64,000 nt of DNA from an uncultured Anaerolineales bacterium (GTDB lineage: Bacteria; Chloroflexota; Anaerolineae; Anaerolineales; UBA6663). The position numbers and the translations under genes were made by a program. Positions within the stretch are counted from its first letter, which is position 1. Each line of letters starts with the position of its first letter. The stretch lies in contig CALFZO010000166.1 of assembly GCA_937952305.1 (NCBI GenBank), positions 1,487 through 65,486 of the forward strand. Direction: 5' to 3'. The notes below the pieces were generated by a model. That model was not told where the DNA came from and made no database searches. It saw only the letters and a program-made list of their open reading frames with translations. This document shows positions 3,234 to 15,050 of this stretch, piece by piece.

Positions 3234-3262
3234 TTGCGCCCCATCCGGGTCACCGCTATAAT
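3234..3262 (+). promoter_or_regulatory. sigma70-type promoter for kinase run
   Basis: TTGCGC (3234-3239), 17-bp spacer, TATAAT (3257-3262). Confidence 0.6.
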
Positions 3263-3323: not shown

Positions 3324-5261
3324 ATGTCGACGCGCATGCAGGGCCAAGGCGACAGCAGCCTGAAGCCCGGGGCCGTCCTCCAGAACCGCTATTCCATCAT
3401 CCGGGTCCTTGGCGTCGGCGGCATGGGCTCGGTCTACCAGGCCCGTGACCTGCGCTTCCCCAACGCCACCAAGTTCGTGGCCGTCAAAGAGATCATCAAT
3501 ATTGCGGACCCGAGCATGCGCGAGATGGTGGTCCGCATCTTCGAACGCGAGGCCAATACCCTGGCCTCGCTCGACCACCCCGCCATCCCCAAGATCTACG
3601 ATTACTTCAACCAGGGCGACCGCTCCTTCCTGGTCATGGAGTTCATCGACGGCAAAGACCTGGAAACGTACGTCAATGACTCGTCGGAAATGCTGAATGA
3701 GGAGCACGTGGTCGAGTGGGCGATTGAGCTCTGCGACGTGCTCTCCTACCTGCACAACCATAAGACCAAAGACAGCCAGGCCGAACCCATCATCTTCCGC
3801 GACCTCAAGCCGTCTAACCTGATGCTGGATCAGCACGGCAGCATCCGGCTGATCGACTTTGGCATCGCCCGCAACTACCAGGCCGGCCAGAAGGGCACCA
3901 TGATCGGCACCGAGGGCTACTCGCCGCCCGAGCAGTATCGGGGCGAATCCAGCCCGGCCGGCGACATCTACGCCCTGGGGGCCACGCTGCACCATCTGCT
4001 CACCAAGCAGGACCCGCGCATCGAGCCGCCCTTCTCGTTCTCGGAACGGCCAGTGCGCAAGGCCAACCCGAACGTGAGCATGGAGTTGGAGGCCATCATC
4101 AACACGGCCCTCAACTACAACCCGGCCGACCGCTTCCCCAACGCCCAGGCGATGAAGGAAGCCCTGGTGGCCCTGCGCCGGCGCAGTTCCGGGATGCTCA
4201 GCCGCCCGCTGGGCACCGGCCGCCTCGACCTGGGCAACCTGGGCAAGGCGGGCGAGAGCACGGCCAGCCCAACGACGAGCGCGTCCGCCACCCCAGCCCG
4301 GGCCGAGGTCACCCCGCTGTGGGTTTTCAAGTGCGAGGACGAGGTCCGCGGCAGCCCGGTCGTCGGCAACGGCCTGGTCTTCGTCGGCGCTTACGACAAC
4401 AACCTGTACGCGGTGACCGCTGCGGATGGCAAGCTGCTGTGGAAATACGCCACCGACGGCGGCCTGCCGGGCTCGCCGGCCATCCACCAGGACATCGTCT
4501 ACATCGGCTCGGAAGACCGGCGGCTGCACGCCGTCTCGGCCAAGGCCGGCAAACTGCAGTGGACGTACTACGCCGACGCGCCTATCCGCTCCTCGCCGCG
4601 CGTGGCCGAGAACCACGTCTTCATCGGCGCGGACGATCATTACCTGCACGCCGTCAACACCGCCACGGGGCGCAAGGCCTGGCGTTTCCAAGCCAATGAC
4701 GCCGTGCGCTGCCGCCCGGCCGTCACCAACGACCGCCTGTTCTTCGGCTGCGAAAGCGGCGAGTTCTACGCCATCGATCTGCGCGGCGAACGCAAGTGGC
4801 ACTTCAAGGCCAAACGCGGGATCACGTCGTCGCCGCTGCTGGCCAATAACACCCTGTACGTCGGGTCGCTGGATGGCATGGTCTACGCGCTGGATGCCAG
4901 CTCCGGCTGGACGATCTGGCGTTTCCGCACCAACAAACCGATCCTGTCCTCGCCCGCGATCGACGGCAATCTGCTGCTGATCGGCTCAGCCGACAATTAC
5001 CTGTACGCCGTCGACGTCCGCACCGGCCGCGAGGCCTGGAAGTTCCAGGCCGAAGGGCAGTTGAACTCGTCGCCGGCGGTCGGCAAGGGCGTGGTCTACA
5101 TCGGCTCGGTGGACGGCTCCGTCTACGCCATCGAGACCGCCAACGGCAAACTACGCTGGCGCTTCAAGTCCGGCGGACCGGTGACGTCGTCGCCCACGCT
5201 GGCCAACGACATTGTCTACATCGGTTCGTTTGATCATTGCCTGTACGCGCTCACGGCTTAG
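3324..5261 (+). CDS. Hanks-type Ser/Thr protein kinase with C-terminal 8-blade PQQ-like beta-propeller, no TM segment
   Basis: LGVGGMGSVY, VAVK, FRDLKPSN, DFG, GTEGYSPPE motifs, then eight W-x-F...SSP...vyiGS.D..lYAvd...G repeats. Start ATG 3324 or 3336. Confidence 0.95.
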   Translation: MSTRMQGQGDSSLKPGAVLQNRYSIIRVLGVGGMGSVYQARDLRFPNATKFVAVKEIINIADPSMREMVVRIFEREANTLASLDHPAIPKIYDYFNQGDRSFLVMEFIDGKDLETYVNDSSEMLNEEHVVEWAIELCDVLSYLHNHKTKDSQAEPIIFRDLKPSNLMLDQHGSIRLIDFGIARNYQAGQKGTMIGTEGYSPPEQYRGESSPAGDIYALGATLHHLLTKQDPRIEPPFSFSERPVRKANPNVSMELEAIINTALNYNPADRFPNAQAMKEALVALRRRSSGMLSRPLGTGRLDLGNLGKAGESTASPTTSASATPARAEVTPLWVFKCEDEVRGSPVVGNGLVFVGAYDNNLYAVTAADGKLLWKYATDGGLPGSPAIHQDIVYIGSEDRRLHAVSAKAGKLQWTYYADAPIRSSPRVAENHVFIGADDHYLHAVNTATGRKAWRFQANDAVRCRPAVTNDRLFFGCESGEFYAIDLRGERKWHFKAKRGITSSPLLANNTLYVGSLDGMVYALDASSGWTIWRFRTNKPILSSPAIDGNLLLIGSADNYLYAVDVRTGREAWKFQAEGQLNSSPAVGKGVVYIGSVDGSVYAIETANGKLRWRFKSGGPVTSSPTLANDIVYIGSFDHCLYALTA

Positions 5262-5269
5262 TCCCGGAG

Positions 5270-6214
5270 ATGGTCGTGGTCGAATTCTTCAAGAATCTGT
5301 TCCGTCCGAAGGAGCCCCTGGCCGCCCCCGGGGTTGGCTCGGCCGTCCGCCCCAGCGACCCGGATGCGACAGTGCCGCTGCCCGACCTCGGCAGCCGGCC
5401 GTCGCCGGACTCGCTCAAAAGCAAGCTGCCGCCGCCGTCGCGTTCGCGCTTCACGGTGGGCACCGCCCAGGACGTGGGCATGGTGCGTCCGCACAACGAG
5501 GACGTCCTGCTGACATTCACCGGGGAGCTGAACGGCCTGGAGCCGATGCCCAATCTCGGCCTGTTTATCGTGGCCGACGGCATGGGCGGCCACTCGCTCG
5601 GTGAACGCGCCAGTGCGCTGGCGGCGCGCTCCATCGCCCAGGTGGCGCTGCAGCAAATCCTGCCGTCGCTGCTGGCCGACCCGGCCGGCGACGTGGAACG
5701 CCCGCTGCTGACCGAAGTGATGGAGTCCGCGGTGGCGGCCGCCAACCGCACCGTGGTGGCCGGCGTACCCGAAGGCGGCACCACCCTGACCAGCGCGCTG
5801 ATCATCGGCGACCAGCTGGTCCTGTGCCACGTCGGCGACACGCGCGGTTACCTGATCACCGACAACCATTTCGAGCAGCTCACGCGCGACCACTCACTCG
5901 TCCAGCGCCTGAAGGAGCTCGGCCAGATCACCGACGACGAAGCCGCCGTCCACCCGCAGCGCAGCGTGCTCTACCGGGCCGTGGGCCAGGGTGACGGGCT
6001 GGAGGTCGACGTGATTTCGCGCCGGCTGACGCCGGGCACGCTGCTCCTGATCTGTTCGGATGGCCTGTGGAGCCTGGTGCCGGACACCCTGCTGCTGGAG
6101 ATCATCCGGCAGGCCACCAGCCTCCAGGCCGCCTGCGACGCGATGGTGAAAGCCGCCAATGACGCCGGCGGACCCGATAACATCACGGTCGTCATTGTGC
6201 AGATGCCGGGCTGA
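5270..6214 (+). CDS. PP2C/PPM Ser/Thr phosphatase (Stp1/PrpC-like) with Pro/Ser-rich N-terminal extension
   Basis: DVGMVRPHNED, VADGMGGH, GGTT, HVGDTRGY, LTRDHS, CSDGLW and GGPDNIT motifs intact. Starts 8 bp after the kinase stop. Confidence 0.95.
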   Translation: MVVVEFFKNLFRPKEPLAAPGVGSAVRPSDPDATVPLPDLGSRPSPDSLKSKLPPPSRSRFTVGTAQDVGMVRPHNEDVLLTFTGELNGLEPMPNLGLFIVADGMGGHSLGERASALAARSIAQVALQQILPSLLADPAGDVERPLLTEVMESAVAAANRTVVAGVPEGGTTLTSALIIGDQLVLCHVGDTRGYLITDNHFEQLTRDHSLVQRLKELGQITDDEAAVHPQRSVLYRAVGQGDGLEVDVISRRLTPGTLLLICSDGLWSLVPDTLLLEIIRQATSLQAACDAMVKAANDAGGPDNITVVIVQMPG

Positions 6215-6377
6215 GGCCCGGACCGGCGGCCGGTTGGAGCCAAGCGCCCCCGGGGGTGGTGCGCTGGCCGCCACACCGCCGTGGATTCCCGCCGGACGCC
6301 GGCGCCGCAGCGCCTGAGCCCGGCGAATCGAAATTGATGAACCACCACCACGTTCTGCTCGGCTAACTCCGTGGCGT

Positions 6378-7865
6378 ATGCCCAACGCTGACCTGTACGG
6401 CTTGCTCGGCATCCCGGCGTCCGCGACCCCGGACGACATCAAGCTCGCCTACCGCGGGGCGGCCCGCCGCTTTCACCCTGACACCAACGGCGGCCCGGGC
6501 GCTACGGAAGAATTCAAGCTCATCGCCGAAGCGCACGCCATCCTGAGCGACCCGGCCCAGCGCGCCCGTTATGACGCCAGCCTGAAACAGGGCAGCCCCG
6601 GGCCGGCGCTGGCGCTGCGCTCCCTGCTCAGCCGCGAGAAGGTCCCGGTCCTGGCTGAGCCCCAGGTCGTCTATGCGCTGGTGGACGTCCGCCCCACCCT
6701 GCCGGCGGGCGAAATCCCCACGCCGCCCATCAACCTCTCCCTGGTCATCGACCGCTCCACCTCGATGCAGGGCGACCGGCTCGACCAGGTCAAGACCGCG
6801 GTCGCCCAGTTGATCGACAGCCTGCGCGAGAACGACACGCTGGCCGTGATCACGTTCAGCGACAAGGCCGAGGTGATCGTCTCGCCCCAGCGCAGCACGC
6901 CCGAGCAGAAGACGATGGCCAAGGCCAAGGTCAGCACCATCCACGCGGCCGGCGGCACCGAGATCCTGCGCGGCCTCCTGCGCGGCCTGATGGAGCTGCA
7001 CCAGCACCTCAGCCCGAGTTCGGTCAACCATCTGATGCTGCTGACCGACGGGCAGACCTACGGCGACGAGGGCGACTGCCAATTGCTGGCGGCGCTGGCC
7101 GCCGCCGACGGCGTCTCCCTCAGCGGTCTCGGGCTGGGCGACGAGTGGAACGACAAGTTCCTGGATGAGCTCGCCAGCGCCACCGGCGGCTCCACGGCTT
7201 TCCTGGCGGCGCCGGATCAGGTGGCCAAATTCCTGCAAGACAAAGTCCGCGGGCTCGGCGCCGCGTTCGGCGAGCGCCTGGCCCTGCGCATCCTGCCGGA
7301 CCAAGGCGTCAAGCTGCTCCAGGCTTACCGGGTAGCGCCCGAGCCCGGCCCGCTGGCGGTGGACGAGTCGCCGCTGTTGATCGGCAGCCTGCCCAAGGAG
7401 CGGAGCCTGAGCCTGCTGCTCAAGTTCCTGCTGCCGCCGATCAGCGAAGGCCCGCGCCCGATCGCGCGGCTGGCCCTGTACGGCGACGTGCTCAGCCTGA
7501 ACCGGCGCGGCGAACGCGCCACCGAAGACCTGGCCGTGACGGCGCTCGCCAGCTTCCAGGCGGTGGCGCCGCCGCCGGCGCTGGTGGACGCGCTCAGCAA
7601 GCTCTCGCAGTACACGCTCCAGGAGCGGGCCTGGCAGAAGGCGGCCTCCGGCGATATCGGCGGCGCGACCCGCCTGCTTTCCACCCTGGGCACCCGCCTG
7701 CTCTCGGCCGGCCAGGCCGACCTGGCCAAAATGGCGATCGCCGAAGCCAAGCGCCTGGAGCGCACGCACACCCTGTCTGAGGACGCCAAGAAGCGCATCA
7801 AGTACGGGACGCGGGCATTGATGCTGCCCGCCCCGGCTTCCGGCTCCGGCCGCCTGCATTCATGA
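6378..7865 (+). CDS. J-domain (DnaJ-like) + VWA domain fusion protein
   Basis: DLYGLLGI...DIKLAYRGAARRFHPDTN (HPD intact), then VWA with MIDAS DRSTS, GGT and LLTDG. Confidence 0.9.
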   Translation: MPNADLYGLLGIPASATPDDIKLAYRGAARRFHPDTNGGPGATEEFKLIAEAHAILSDPAQRARYDASLKQGSPGPALALRSLLSREKVPVLAEPQVVYALVDVRPTLPAGEIPTPPINLSLVIDRSTSMQGDRLDQVKTAVAQLIDSLRENDTLAVITFSDKAEVIVSPQRSTPEQKTMAKAKVSTIHAAGGTEILRGLLRGLMELHQHLSPSSVNHLMLLTDGQTYGDEGDCQLLAALAAADGVSLSGLGLGDEWNDKFLDELASATGGSTAFLAAPDQVAKFLQDKVRGLGAAFGERLALRILPDQGVKLLQAYRVAPEPGPLAVDESPLLIGSLPKERSLSLLLKFLLPPISEGPRPIARLALYGDVLSLNRRGERATEDLAVTALASFQAVAPPPALVDALSKLSQYTLQERAWQKAASGDIGGATRLLSTLGTRLLSAGQADLAKMAIAEAKRLERTHTLSEDAKKRIKYGTRALMLPAPASGSGRLHS

Positions 7866-8371
7866 TTACGTGTCTGGCCTGCCGCAACCAGGAATACGAA
7901 GGCGAGCTCTTCTGCTCCAACTGCGGCGCGCGCCTGTGGGGCGCGAGCGGCGAGACGCTGCCGACAATCACGTTCGACACCAACCGGCTGCGCGAGATCT
8001 CCAAGCCGCTGGCCACCACGGCGACGACCGGCCACGACCTGAAGCCCGGCCAGATCGCCATCAGCGTCACCGGCACCGGGCAGAGCGTCCTGCTGGAGAG
8101 CCGGCCCGAGTACGTCATCGGCCGGGAGGGCCAGGAGCAGGATGTTCCGGACGTCAACCTGGGACCGTTCGGGGCGCGCGAGAAGGGCGTCTCGCGCAAA
8201 CACGCCGTGCTGCGGGTGGACCGGCGTCAGCTGCTGCTGCTGGATCTGGGCAGCTCCAATGGGACCTGGCTCAACGGCTCCCAACTCGCGCCGCAGGAGC
8301 CGATCCGCCTGGAGAGCGGCGACGAGATCCGGCTAGGCAAGCTGCTCCTGAAAGTGTTCTTCAATTTATGA
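7862..8371 (+). CDS. Zinc-ribbon + FHA domain protein
   Basis: CLAC...CSNCG at N-terminus; FHA phospho-Thr residues IGR, SRKH and SSNGT. ATGA overlap with the upstream stop. Confidence 0.9.
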   Translation: MITCLACRNQEYEGELFCSNCGARLWGASGETLPTITFDTNRLREISKPLATTATTGHDLKPGQIAISVTGTGQSVLLESRPEYVIGREGQEQDVPDVNLGPFGAREKGVSRKHAVLRVDRRQLLLLDLGSSNGTWLNGSQLAPQEPIRLESGDEIRLGKLLLKVFFNL

Positions 8372-8407
8372 CCCCGTGGGGGCGGTGTCACACGAGCGGA
8401 GACCGAC

Positions 8408-8650
8408 ATGGCCATCCAAGTCCTGATCCACATTGCCAATGAAGACCCGATCCTGGGCGAGCTGGAAAAGCTGCCGGCGTCCACGGACCTGATGGTCATG
8501 GTGCTCAACCCGCGCGCCCGCGACAACAAAGACTTGCGCTACCTGGCCCCGAACGTGACCCAGGTGATTTGGCCGATGACCCGGATCACGTTCATCGAAA
8601 TCATGCCCGCCGCCGACGAAGAGAAGCTGGTGGGCTTCGTGCGCGAATGA
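8408..8650 (+). CDS. Small hypothetical protein (80 aa), possibly Sm/LSm-like fold
   Basis: GGAG upstream, strong GC3 codon bias, alternating hydrophobic beta-strand pattern. Confidence 0.75.
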   Translation: MAIQVLIHIANEDPILGELEKLPASTDLMVMVLNPRARDNKDLRYLAPNVTQVIWPMTRITFIEIMPAADEEKLVGFVRE

Positions 8651-8712
8651 CGCGGCCGCGGGTGACGCGGCCGCGCATCAGCGGCGAACACTGCGCCTCC
8701 CTGGTCTGAGCT

Positions 8713-9435
8713 ATGCCTGAAGCCCGCGAACGCCACCGCATCCTGGTCGTGGACGATGAGCCGCGCATGATCCGGTTCATCCGCCTGAACCTCGAGCACG
8801 ACGGTTTCGAGGTGGTGGAGGCGGCGGACGGCCTGGCCGCTCTCAAGCAGGTGCGCGACACGCTGCCGGACCTGGTGCTGCTGGACGTGGCCATGCCGGA
8901 GCTGGACGGCTTTGAGACCCTGCGCCTGCTGCGCGAAGTGGCCAGCGTGCCCGTGATCATGCTGACGGCGCGCGCCGAGGAGGATGACCGGGTACGCGGC
9001 CTGGAGCTGGGCGCCGACGACTACGTCACCAAGCCCTTCAGCCCGCGCGAGCTGGTCAGCCGGGTCCGGGCGGTGCTGCGCCGGACCGAATCACCCGCGC
9101 CGGCCGAGAAATCCACGCTGACGATCGACGACCGGTTGAGCATCAACTTCGACCGGCGCGAGGTCCTCGCCAACGGCCAGCCCGTGAAGCTCCGCCCCAC
9201 CGAGTACCGGCTGCTCTATCACCTCGTGCAGAACGCCGGCTGGGTGGTGCCGCACGACCAGCTGCTGGCCAAGGTCTGGGGCTACGAGTATCGCGAGGAG
9301 ACGCACTACCTGCGGCTGTATATCAACTACCTGCGCCAAAAACTTGAGCCGGATCCCGCCAATCCCCGCTACATCCTGACGGAGCGCGGCGTCGGCTATC
9401 GTTTCGTCGATTTCCGGCGCGCCGACAAGAATTAG
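8713..9435 (+). CDS. OmpR/KdpE-family two-component response regulator
   Basis: [16 protein letters not shown] (phospho-Asp), [14 protein letters not shown], and winged-helix C-terminus ERGVGYRF. Confidence 0.95.
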
Positions 9436-9490
9436 CCGTCGGGCGAGCGCGCCGCCCACCCAACCACCCAACAGAGTCGAGGTAAAACGC

Positions 9491-10645
9491 ATGAGACAAG
9501 CCGCCGCATCACCCATTTGGAGATGGTTACTCATCATCCTCATCGTCCTGCTCGTCGGCGTGCCGGCCGTGCTGGCCGTCACCAGCCAGTTCGCCTATTT
9601 CCTGGAGAGGGTGGAACCGCAAGAGGTGGGCGTGCAGTTTCAGGGCGGCCAGATCAAGGGTATCGTCGGGCCGGGCGTCTACAGCGACTTCGGCCTGTAC
9701 GTCGAGTTGAAGCGCGTGTCCAGCCAGGCCATCCCGTTCAACGTGCGCGACGAGGAGATCATCACCAAGGACAAGCAGCGCATTGGCCTGGTGGTCACCG
9801 GCGACGCGCTGCGGCCCGGCATCGCGCGCACCGACGTGCTGCTGGCGAACTGGGCCCAGTACAGCCAGCTCTACCTAGACGACATCGTCGCCCAGGAGCG
9901 CGTCAAGGCGCTGGCCCAGCAGGCCATGAAGGTCTGCGTCGGCGAGCGCCCGTTCGACGACGCCATCATCGGCACGGCCCGCGACGAGCTGCGCAACTGC
10001 ATCGACGAGGAGTTGAGCAAACTGGCCGAGATCTACGGCTTCGTCATCCAGAACGTGGTGGTGCCGGAAGTGGTCCTCTCGCCGGAGGTCCAGGCCGCGC
10101 TGGACGCCATCGTCCAGAGCCGGCTGGAGACCGAGAAGGCCGCCCAAGACAAGCTGCGGGCCGAGGCCCAGGCGCAGGCCGAACAGGCCCGCCAGGAAGG
10201 CGAGATCCGCGTGGAGCAGAGCCGCATCCAGGAGGAGACCAAGCAGCAGACCATCCTGGCCCAGCTGGAGCGCGATAAGATCCAGGCCCAGCAAGCCGTG
10301 ATCCAGGCCGAGAAAGCCAACGAGCTGGCCCGCGTGGAAGCCGAACGCCAGATCATCGAGGCGCAGAAGTCCAACGACCTGTTCGCGGCGCAGCAAGACC
10401 TGGAGATCAACCGCGCGCTGGCCCTGGCCGCGACCGAGAAGGCCAAGGCCGACCTGGCCATGCAGCTGGCCTTGGCCGAGATCTACGCCGAGAACCCGGC
10501 CTACCTGCAGCTCCAGATCGCCCAGGCCAACGCCAGCGCTCTGCAGCCCACCGACAAGATCATCTTCACACCCGAGGGCACGACGCCCACGATCGTCCTG
10601 CCCGGCCCGGGCATCACGCCCACCGTCAACACCGAGCCGCGTTAA
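9491..10645 (+). CDS. SPFH (band-7/flotillin-like) membrane protein
   Basis: N-terminal TM helix, SPFH-like core (IITKDKQRI...GFVIQNVVV) and a long A/E/Q-rich coiled coil. Confidence 0.85.
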   Translation: MRQAAASPIWRWLLIILIVLLVGVPAVLAVTSQFAYFLERVEPQEVGVQFQGGQIKGIVGPGVYSDFGLYVELKRVSSQAIPFNVRDEEIITKDKQRIGLVVTGDALRPGIARTDVLLANWAQYSQLYLDDIVAQERVKALAQQAMKVCVGERPFDDAIIGTARDELRNCIDEELSKLAEIYGFVIQNVVVPEVVLSPEVQAALDAIVQSRLETEKAAQDKLRAEAQAQAEQARQEGEIRVEQSRIQEETKQQTILAQLERDKIQAQQAVIQAEKANELARVEAERQIIEAQKSNDLFAAQQDLEINRALALAATEKAKADLAMQLALAEIYAENPAYLQLQIAQANASALQPTDKIIFTPEGTTPTIVLPGPGITPTVNTEPR

Positions 10646-10663: not shown

Positions 10664-10693
10664 AAAAGGGCGGGCCGTGCGGCCCGCCCTTTT
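10664..10693. terminator. Bidirectional intrinsic terminator
   Basis: AAAAGGGCGGGCCG-TG-CGGCCCGCCCTTTT perfect inverted repeat between convergent genes. Confidence 0.85.
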
Positions 10694-10713
10694 GGGTTGC
10701 CAGCCCTCAGCGC

Positions 10714-13763: not shown

Positions 13764-15050
13764 TCAGGCCTCGGCGTCGAAACGCGCCACCAGGACGGTG
13801 ATGTCGTCGAAGGCCGGCGCGTCGCCGCGAAACTCAAAGACGTCGTTGAAGATGGCCGAGCACACGATCTTGGCCGAGGCCGTGCGCTGGCGCTCCACCA
13901 GGGCCACCAGGCGCTCTTCCGTGTAGGCGTTGTTGTCGCGGTCCACGGCGTCCGGCACCCCATCGGAGTAGGCCACCAACAGGTCGCCGGGCCGCAGGTC
14001 CACCTGACGCTCCTCCAGGCTGAGGTCCGGCCACATGCCCAGGAAGCGCCCATCCGCGTCCAGGTGCTCCGGCGGGCCGCCGGCGGCCCGGAAGAGCAGC
14101 GGCTTGTCCTGGCCGGCGCGCACATAGCGCAGGCGGCCGGTGTTCACGTCCAGGAGGCCATAGAAGACGGTGACGAACATGTCGTCGTTGGTGGAGACTT
14201 CCATCAGGCCGTTGTGCACGGCCAGCGCCACCTCGGCCGGCGACAGGCTGCGCCGGGCATGGGCCAGAAAGAGCGTGCGGGTGACGGCCATGATCAGGGC
14301 GGCGTGGACGCTCTTGTCTGAGACATCGGCCATCAGCAGACCAAGATGGTCGTCGTCCACGCGGATCACGTCATACAGGTCGCCGCCGACGTGGCGGGCC
14401 GGCACGTTGCGGCCGAAAAACGAATAGCCCTGGGCGGCCGGAAACTTGGACGGCAGCAAGCTGCGCTGAACCTCGCCCGCGATCTCCATCTCGTGCTCGA
14501 GCTTCTCCTTTTGCACCAGCTCGGCCTGGGCGGCCTTGAGCTCGTCGTAGGCGCGCCGCAGCTCGTCGTTCTTGCGCGTCAGATCGGCGATGGTGGCCTG
14601 GCCGGAGGCGCGCACATTCGAGACGAAGCGCCGGATCATGGCCATGGCCAGCTGCGGGCTGTTGCTGAGCAGCTGCTGGAACTCGTCTTCCGAGATCTCC
14701 AGCAGCGTGGACTTGGTCGTGGTGGTGACGGTGGCCGTGCGCGCCTTCTTCTCCAGCAGGGCCATCTCGCCGAAGAACTCGCCGGGGCCGCGCATCGTCA
14801 GCAGCCGCTTGGCGTGATCGCCAAGCTTCTGGGTGATCTCCACCTGGCCGTCGGCGACGATGTAGAAGATGTGCTCCAGCTCGCCTTCATAACAGAGGGT
14901 GTGCTCGGCCGGATAGACTTGCGCCACGCAGGCGGCGGTCAGCGCCTGCACATCGGCTTCGGCGACGCCCGGAAACGCCTGGCGGAGGATGGCCGGGATA
15001 TCGGGCGCGGTACGGAGCGGGGCGCCGTCAGATTGGTTGGCTTGAGTCAT
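13764..15050 (-). CDS. cNMP-binding domain + coiled coil + SpoIIE/RsbU-type PP2C phosphatase
   Basis: FFGEMALL...RTATV cyclic-nucleotide cassette; VGGDLYD, MADVSDK, YSDGVPD and DDITV phosphatase motifs. Confidence 0.92.
   Translation of the reverse strand: MTQANQSDGAPLRTAPDIPAILRQAFPGVAEADVQALTAACVAQVYPAEHTLCYEGELEHIFYIVADGQVEITQKLGDHAKRLLTMRGPGEFFGEMALLEKKARTATVTTTTKSTLLEISEDEFQQLLSNSPQLAMAMIRRFVSNVRASGQATIADLTRKNDELRRAYDELKAAQAELVQKEKLEHEMEIAGEVQRSLLPSKFPAAQGYSFFGRNVPARHVGGDLYDVIRVDDDHLGLLMADVSDKSVHAALIMAVTRTLFLAHARRSLSPAEVALAVHNGLMEVSTNDDMFVTVFYGLLDVNTGRLRYVRAGQDKPLLFRAAGGPPEHLDADGRFLGMWPDLSLEERQVDLRPGDLLVAYSDGVPDAVDRDNNAYTEERLVALVERQRTASAKIVCSAIFNDVFEFRGDAPAFDDITVLVARFDAEA

Follow-up and report, generated by a model that had tools for sequence, protein, structure and literature searches.

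In the archaellum regulatory network of Sulfolobus acidocaldarius, the proteins ArnA and ArnB form one of the few archaeal phosphothreonine switches that have been worked out. ArnB consists of an eight-stranded sandwich, into which a VWA domain is inserted, followed by a regulatory four-helix bundle, and its threonines are phosphorylated by ArnC, a kinase of the Hanks type; ArnA consists of a zinc ribbon and an FHA domain, of which the zinc finger binds ArnB weakly and the FHA domain binds the phosphorylated bundle tightly (PMC12852372, PMC6509490). The mechanism downstream of this complex is unresolved in archaea (PMC12852372). Here we analyse a bacterial locus in a 64,000-nucleotide stretch from an uncultured Anaerolineales bacterium (contig CALFZO010000166.1, positions 1,487 to 65,486; the whole stretch is called the window below). 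The product of the locus is probably an ArnA/ArnB-type phosphothreonine switch of the cytoplasm, equipped with its own kinase and phosphatase. It belongs to an uncharacterised operon that is class-wide in Anaerolineae and whose core resembles the archaeal switch.

ArnA/ArnB (with ArnC/ArnD and PP2A; PDB 8S05, 5A8I, 5A8J) is the system closest to this locus, and similar sets of genes are known from bacteria. The operon DRA0331-DRA0334 of Deinococcus radiodurans encodes a vWA protein, a Ser/Thr protein kinase (STPK), a FraH-like FHA protein and a KI-FHA-PP2C protein, and push-pull control in this operon was shown experimentally (bioRxiv 10.64898/2026.01.23.701218). Compared by gene and domain content, it is like our locus in having VWA, Hanks kinase, FHA and PP2C, whereas its kinase is membrane-anchored and lacks a propeller, its PP2C protein has an FHA-like domain of its own, and a J domain, an Sm-like protein and a response regulator are absent from it. 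Since paralogous clusters of PP2C, Ser/Thr kinase (STK), VWA and FHA genes also occur in Chloroflexia, the VWA/kinase/FHA/PP2C cassette is a recurrent bacterial theme. The TerY-P triad combines VWA, PP2C and a Ser/Thr kinase that has either a zinc ribbon or an OB fold at its C-terminus and is a proposed phosphorylation switch (PMC10542128, where Anantharaman et al. 2012 and Gao et al. 2020 are cited for it). In that description the triad has no FHA partner and is linked to tellurite-resistance or defence loci, while our locus has an FHA protein and a near-universal single-copy distribution, and its kinase ends in an 8-repeat PQQ-type propeller instead of a zinc ribbon or OB fold. With AfsK of Streptomyces the locus shares only the architecture of a kinase domain followed by a PQQ-type propeller, the partners and targets being different.

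The original prediction, made from the letters of the window, had placed seven co-oriented genes at positions 3324-10645, and ORF and Pfam analysis returned exactly this arrangement: seven open reading frames (ORFs) with unchanged coordinates, all on the plus strand, with the named domains found in six of them and no Pfam family for the 80-aa protein. The proposed logic of a writer (kinase), an eraser (PP2C) and a reader (FHA) acting around a VWA protein also holds, the motifs of the kinase, the J domain (HPD), the adhesion site that depends on metal ions (MIDAS) and the FHA domain being intact by direct reading. The combination, which had not been recognised as a named system, does resemble a described one: the pair of VWA and zinc ribbon-FHA (ZnR-FHA) proteins corresponds in bacteria to ArnB and ArnA of archaea. 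In its predicted structure the VWA protein shows the ArnB architecture, the next gene encodes the ArnA architecture, both in line with the published descriptions (PMC12852372, PMC6509490), and the two genes overlap.

The VWA gene (6378-7865, plus strand) encodes a J domain fused to an ArnB-like VWA protein (Pfam DnaJ E 9e-20, VWA E 8e-20). In the AlphaFold2 model, which was built on 20 orthologs (pLDDT 87.5, pTM 0.83), the J domain (residues 1-70) is followed by strands (78-106), the VWA domain (118-294), further strands (296-390) and four helices (400-480), so that the layout is that of a sandwich split by the VWA domain. The four-helix bundle is predicted with high confidence and lies within the structural alignment with ArnB. 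When the model was compared with the PDB by Foldseek, the best match was the Catenulispora vWA protein 4FX5 (E 4e-28); ArnB (8s05_A) was found with E 8e-26 and TM 0.77 over 420 columns, which is essentially the whole of ArnB, and its paralog 5A8J with E 2e-20, while inter-alpha-inhibitor and Sec23/24 were far behind. A profile of the VWA orthologs also has ArnB among its best PDB matches (E 2e-19). The MIDAS residues D125, S127, S129, T194 and D224 are invariant in the 20 orthologs.

The next gene (7862-8371, plus strand) encodes an ArnA-like protein composed of an N-terminal 4-Cys zinc ribbon, a linker and a C-terminal FHA domain (Pfam FHA E 2e-17). The Pfam zinc-ribbon matches are weak; the ribbon cysteines C4, C7, C18 and C21 are invariant in the orthologs, as are the phosphothreonine-binding residues of the FHA domain (G87-R88, S111-R112-x-H114 and N133-G134). 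The best two PDB matches of the ortholog profile are both ArnA (5a8i, E 3e-14; 8s05_C, E 4e-14), which outranks all bacterial FHA proteins in this search. Adjacent ZnR-FHA and VWA genes, a split sandwich (predicted in our case) and an intact MIDAS are common to both systems, and the four helices predicted here, with their threonines, resemble the bundle of ArnB. Control by a Hanks kinase and a Ser/Thr phosphatase, known for the Sulfolobus pair, also has its correlate here, since the locus encodes both types of enzyme.

The first gene of the locus (3324-5261, plus strand) encodes a soluble Hanks-type Ser/Thr kinase with a C-terminal PQQ-type beta-propeller of eight sequence repeats, which is an AfsK-like architecture (Pfam Pkinase E 4e-41, Beta-prop_ACSF4 E 2e-84, PQQ_2 E 9e-56). 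Lys55, F-R-D at 158-160 and DFG at 178 are all intact, and the orthologs from 29 loci are 42-87% identical. The best NCBIfam match is AfsK (NF053615), located on the propeller; its score of 223 bits is far below the cut-off of 1300 for that family. The second gene (5270-6214, plus strand) encodes a PP2C-type Ser/Thr phosphatase (Pfam PP2C E 1e-13; NCBIfam Stp1/IreP family, 209 bits with the cut-off at 230) with a variable N-terminal extension of about 60 aa, distant orthologs being alignable only from residue ~61.

We suppose that the kinase would use its eight-repeat propeller as a sensing or docking domain and would phosphorylate threonines in the C-terminal bundle of the VWA protein. The best candidate phosphosites on this protein are T478 and T439. 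In every VWA ortholog, including those of Chloroflexia, the bundle ends in the motif [KR]-I-[KR]-[YFL]-G-T-R-x-L, the threonine of which is T478 in the window, and a second motif, G-T-R-L-L at T439 in the second bundle helix, is mostly conserved. FHA domains commonly prefer Leu at position +3, as in T478-R-x-L. A further possible target is T35 of the FHA protein, which belongs to a conserved T35-x-x-[F/L/I/M] motif directly after the zinc ribbon; this motif may serve for self-binding, as in GarA/OdhI, or for docking of the kinase. The zinc ribbon would hold the VWA/FHA pair loosely, the binding of phosphothreonine by the FHA domain would convert it into a tight complex, and PP2C would reverse this conversion. 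More tentatively, the J domain of the Anaerolineae proteins may recruit DnaK to the complex itself or to whatever is bound at the MIDAS, the OmpR-family regulator may be the transcriptional output or a co-regulated partner, either the kinase or the FHA protein may have the Sm-like 80-aa protein as its obligate accessory, and the SPFH gene may be a local passenger.

The locus differs from the archaeal system in being bacterial, in the VWA-then-FHA order of genes, in the fusion of a J domain and in the addition of an Sm-like protein and an OmpR-family regulator; there is also no archaellum to regulate. Several further points weigh against an ArnA/ArnB-type switch. The identity of the VWA protein to ArnB is about 17%, and at this level a common descent of the helical bundles is not proven. 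The C-terminal 206 residues of the VWA protein (290-495), which comprise sandwich strands and the helical bundle, match no Pfam family even at E 10, a result that covers ArnB_C (IPR040929) only if this model is present in the copy searched. In the model T478 sits where a helix ends, and it would have to become exposed. In Sulfolobus a phosphatase of the PPP family (PP2A) is used and the kinases come from genes located elsewhere, whereas here a PQQ-propeller kinase and a PP2C enzyme are encoded within the operon. All the steps of the mechanism set out above are drawn by analogy with Sulfolobus ArnA/ArnB. With all the residues for ordinary His-Asp phosphorylation retained, the regulator may answer to an unlinked histidine kinase and have only a loose tie to the switch. 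The 163-bp spacer between the PP2C and J-VWA genes could be the site of an internal promoter, and RNA matching the window's genome amounts to three short fragments (98-99% identity) located in the kinase, PP2C and J-VWA genes, none of which spans a junction.

A search of species-representative genomes with the J-VWA protein gave 25 Chloroflexota loci, labelled as Anaerolineales, Aggregatilineales, Leptolinea, Phototrophicaceae and "Chloroflexia" metagenome-assembled genomes. The operon genes are encoded in 24 of them (L001-L025); L026 matches the J domain only. Synteny in related genomes had been set beforehand as a check, and the order kinase-PQQ, PP2C, J-VWA, ZnR-FHA, 80-aa protein and OmpR-type regulator proved identical in these 24 related loci wherever the contig reaches. 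The genes that flank the six-gene block differ between lineages, and because the same order recurs with different flanks, it represents more than chance. Most intergenic gaps across the loci are shorter than 60 bp, and in 12 of the loci the VWA gene still overlaps the FHA gene by ATGA. A gene for the SPFH protein comes after the regulator in no more than five loci, all from the family of the window (L001, L005, L007, L008 and L017), which makes it a neighbour and not a component. The conserved unit is therefore composed of six genes, and not of seven as had been supposed.

When 40 relatives from the order were scanned, about 35 had a full-length J-VWA ortholog; the identity is 81% within the genus and declines to 35-50% at the level of the order. 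This dependence on taxonomic distance fits the vertical inheritance of a core gene and not a mobile defence island. The operon is present in a single copy, among housekeeping genes and without mobile elements.

An older form of the system is seen in Chloroflexia, where the order of genes is kinase-PQQ, PP2C, VWA, ZnR-FHA and small protein, the VWA protein has 417-443 aa without a J domain, and no regulator comes next. Three complete genomes with this five-gene core are those that we take to be Chloroflexus aurantiacus J-10-fl, Roseiflexus sp. RS-1 and Herpetosiphon aurantiacus. The older core is thus formed by five genes and has neither the J domain nor a linked regulator. Since the Chloroflexia form lacks both, the J fusion and the linkage of the regulator are features of the Anaerolineae operon. 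As RNA for the window's genome came from one metatranscriptome only, transcription of the operon was examined on the Chloroflexus ortholog. In a mat metatranscriptome, contigs of 100% identity bridge the STK/PP2C, PP2C/VWA, VWA/FHA, FHA/small protein and small protein/arginase junctions, and the coverage reaches no further than 25 nt upstream of where the kinase starts, with none on the upstream gene; in a second independent sample (about 95% identity) two junctions are bridged. These data, obtained from assembled contigs that carry no strand information, support co-transcription of the core in a relative of the window's bacterium.

The original prediction can be taken as a self-contained system of seven genes, the main job of which would be that the J-VWA protein delivers clients to DnaK under the control of phosphorylation, with the SPFH protein as the organising scaffold at the membrane. 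In the window the J domain is of full length (Pfam DnaJ, 71 bits over the full model), its HPD motif at 33-35 and the MIDAS of the adjoining VWA domain are intact, and Pfam detects a J domain in nearly all of the 120 closest homologs. The SPFH gene (9491-10645, plus strand; Pfam Band_7 E 7e-12) starts 55 bp after the regulator gene, and the only strong terminator comes after it. The other side of the balance is given by the comparison of lineages. A J domain is missing from the Chloroflexia orthologs and from three further loci (L022, L024 and L025) that keep the rest of the operon, and six J-bearing loci (L007, L008, L017, L014, L021 and L019) have lost the HPD motif with the rest of the operon conserved. 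Because of these losses and absences, the recruitment of Hsp70 appears as an add-on and not as the core function, and targeting of Hsp70 clients cannot be regarded as the conserved role of the operon. The protein also lacks the G/F region and the DnaJ zinc-finger domain, so it is not an ortholog of DnaJ or CbpA. As for the membrane, a hydropathy scan of the seven proteins found a helix only in the SPFH protein, at its N-terminus, the six upstream proteins being predicted as soluble and cytoplasmic; the membrane location of the SPFH protein is thereby upheld at the level of prediction, while its role as a scaffold of the module was rejected on synteny. Since the conserved core does without the J domain and without SPFH, we consider a seven-gene client-delivery system unlikely. 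In two of the loci without HPD, the corresponding J-domain segments read HLNSNP (L014) and HLQANP (L021), and the same loci show a loosened VWA-FHA coupling, with gaps of 114 and 222 bp instead of an overlap (L014:11500-11620 and L021:11500-11730).

The locus might instead be a TerY-P-like stress or anti-phage defence triad of VWA, PP2C and kinase to which accessory genes were added. The three domain types are the same, and such triads are described as phosphorylation switches with some anti-phage variants (PMC10542128). The kinship suggested by the original prediction goes no further than these domain types, and the match to TerY-P is a looser one. The kinase has a PQQ propeller and not a zinc ribbon or OB fold. 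Its matches to the PADLOC kinase models, such as PD-T4-6 and mad6, involve the generic catalytic domain only, on which ground the defence reading was rejected, and PADLOC has no match for the VWA, FHA or small protein. A single-copy operon shared by nearly all relatives, the identity of which follows taxonomy and which stands among housekeeping genes without mobile elements, is unlike a defence island, and we regard a defence triad as highly improbable. A general Ser/Thr signalling cassette without a specific ArnA/ArnB-like pairing, in which the FHA protein would mainly regulate the kinase and PP2C and in which the regulator and small protein would be merely co-expressed, finds a parallel in Deinococcus, where kinase phosphorylation is tuned in an FHA-dependent manner and antagonised by PP2C (bioRxiv 10.64898/2026.01.23.701218). 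Several paralogous PP2C, STK, VWA and FHA clusters in Chloroflexia, as well as the conserved T35-x-x-hydrophobic motif of the FHA protein itself, agree with such a cassette. However, the ATGA coupling of VWA and FHA and the position of ArnB and ArnA as their respective best solved relatives favour a direct pair, and the invariant TRxL motif of the VWA protein would be hard to explain otherwise. A cassette without the pairing seems to us quite unlikely; a general cassette and an ArnA/ArnB-type switch are not mutually exclusive.

The fifth gene (8408-8650, plus strand) encodes an 80-aa protein of an unnamed family, for which no match was found in Pfam (including LSM), NCBIfam or PADLOC. Its AlphaFold2 model (pLDDT 85.7) is a predicted Sm-like barrel of five strands without an N-terminal helix, and its top Foldseek matches are all Sm/LSm proteins, although weak ones (E ~1e-2, TM 0.5-0.6). 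The profile of the protein matches 291 of 1.84 billion representative proteins; the named relatives are all annotated as "hypothetical protein" from Anaerolineae or Chloroflexi, and the family is so far restricted to Chloroflexota, where one copy was found in 86 of 301 evenly sampled genomes. Among the examined loci that keep the kinase/VWA/FHA module or a part of it, the small gene adjoins the FHA gene or that of the PQQ kinase. In one family the cluster is split and the kinase-PQQ gene still stands beside the small gene (L034), while in other split lineages only the FHA and small genes remain together (L031 and L039), so the small protein cannot be assigned to the kinase or to the FHA protein alone. 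Judging by the modelled fold, it may bind RNA or a partner protein, like the LSm domain of Edc3.

In another Chloroflexota family, proteins of about 110-190 aa (L029:9492-10031, minus strand; L035 near 9900-10110) carry an N-terminal domain that is a distant homolog of the small protein (E 1e-8 to 1e-13) and that in L029 is followed by a long acidic low-complexity tail. The genes of these proteins directly adjoin that of DNA topoisomerase I, and neither a kinase nor an FHA gene lies close by. In the family with the split cluster, the PQQ kinase and small genes are adjacent on one contig (L034:9926-12122, minus strand), and a separate contig of the same family (L053:7938-9536, minus strand) has a longer VWA homolog, the match to which spans the J-domain region, in divergent orientation beside a propeller-less kinase. 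In the genome search an open frame with an in-frame TAG was flagged in this family. The Chloroflexia genomes of L050 (5400-12300) and L051 (3300-10300), presumably Chloroflexus and Roseiflexus, contain 3-4 ArnB-like VWA paralogs of full length and 32-39% identity, some of which lie within clusters of PP2C, PP2C, propeller-less kinase, VWA and FHA genes. From this number of paralogs per genome and the clustering of some of them, one can suggest that the phylum holds a family of such switches.

The last gene of the conserved unit (8713-9435, plus strand) encodes an OmpR-family response regulator without an adjacent histidine kinase (Pfam Response_reg E 7e-33 and Trans_reg_C E 3e-26). Its orthologs within the Anaerolineae operons are 68-95% identical, and a single clear ortholog was present in each of the six Chloroflexota genomes checked. 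In four genomes (three from Chloroflexia and one from another Anaerolineae family) the ortholog is located away from the module and is 67-69% identical, the paralogs being at most 52% identical; a rough reading of ORFs revealed no obvious histidine kinase adjacent to it in these four genomes. The acidic pocket DD, the Asp, the Thr and the Lys of the receiver domain are conserved in 25 orthologs, and the protein scores below the RpaB, MtrA, PhoB and WalR equivalog cut-offs (208-224 bits against 296-340). In the window, a dCache-HAMP-HisKA histidine kinase gene, interrupted by the window edge, lies on the minus strand at 1-1632. The same kinase is found upstream of the operon in L001, L007, L008 and L017 and not beyond the window's family, and it is a possible local partner of the regulator.

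An extension of the ArnA/ArnB-type switch may be considered, in which the phosphorylation state of the VWA/FHA pair would be passed directly to the OmpR-family regulator without a linked histidine kinase, either through binding at the FHA domain or the MIDAS or through phosphorylation of the regulator on Ser/Thr, while the DnaK recruited by the J domain would assemble or dismantle the complex and the Sm-like protein would be a new adaptor of the propeller kinase. We look on this extension as speculative and unlikely. If true, it would mean a class-wide, histidine-kinase-independent control of a response regulator in filamentous Chloroflexota and would show how switches of the ArnA/ArnB type reach their targets.

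The signals and spacing around the genes agree for the most part with the original description. The 8-bp gap between the kinase and PP2C genes, the ATGA overlap of the J-VWA and FHA genes and the 163-bp spacer (6215-6377, plus strand) are all present. The bidirectional intrinsic terminator described after the last gene was confirmed as a perfect hairpin at 10664-10695, between the SPFH gene and a convergent S9 peptidase gene; it consists of AAAAGGGCGGGCC-gtgc-GGCCCGCCCTTTT, with a stem of 9 bp GC (14 bp counting the A4/T4 flanks) and a loop of 4 nt. Read by eye and then confirmed by folding (dG -36.3 kcal/mol, z -2.9), it was missed by the consensus scan tool. The promoter, which had been called a good sigma70 one, fared less uniformly. 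The putative site TTGCGC-17 nt-TATAAT (3234-3262, plus strand), also read by eye, has a perfect -10 element, but its -35 element agrees at only 3 of 6 positions and the consensus scan did not call it, so to call it good is generous. The GC-rich spacer between the PP2C and J-VWA genes is atypical for this operon: the corresponding gap is 4-66 bp in the other Anaerolineae loci and 5 bp in the 81%-identical L001. An Rfam search with the spacer gave no family, and its fold is no better than that of shuffled sequence (z-score -0.7).

Upstream, the locus is flanked by an MFS transporter gene and the dCache-HAMP histidine kinase gene on the opposite strand, and downstream by the convergent S9 peptidase gene. 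Some 3 kb downstream (13764-15050, minus strand) lies a gene in which a cyclic-nucleotide-binding domain is fused to a SpoIIE/PP2C-type phosphatase, a second signalling gene of the Ser/Thr-phosphatase type near the locus.

A literature search found no publication on a bacterial fusion of a J domain with a vWA domain, nor on this operon. A bacterial counterpart of ArnA/ArnB whose operon brings together a kinase, a phosphatase, a transcription factor and a domain for the recruitment of Hsp70 provides candidate partners which are directly testable. The 80-aa Sm-like family represents a new protein family without annotation. The simpler five-gene form, found in genomes that we take to be those of the cultured Chloroflexus, Roseiflexus and Herpetosiphon, offers an experimental route. 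The operon belongs to the conserved gene set of Anaerolineae, the abundant filamentous bacteria of activated sludge and sediments, the signalling of which is little known.

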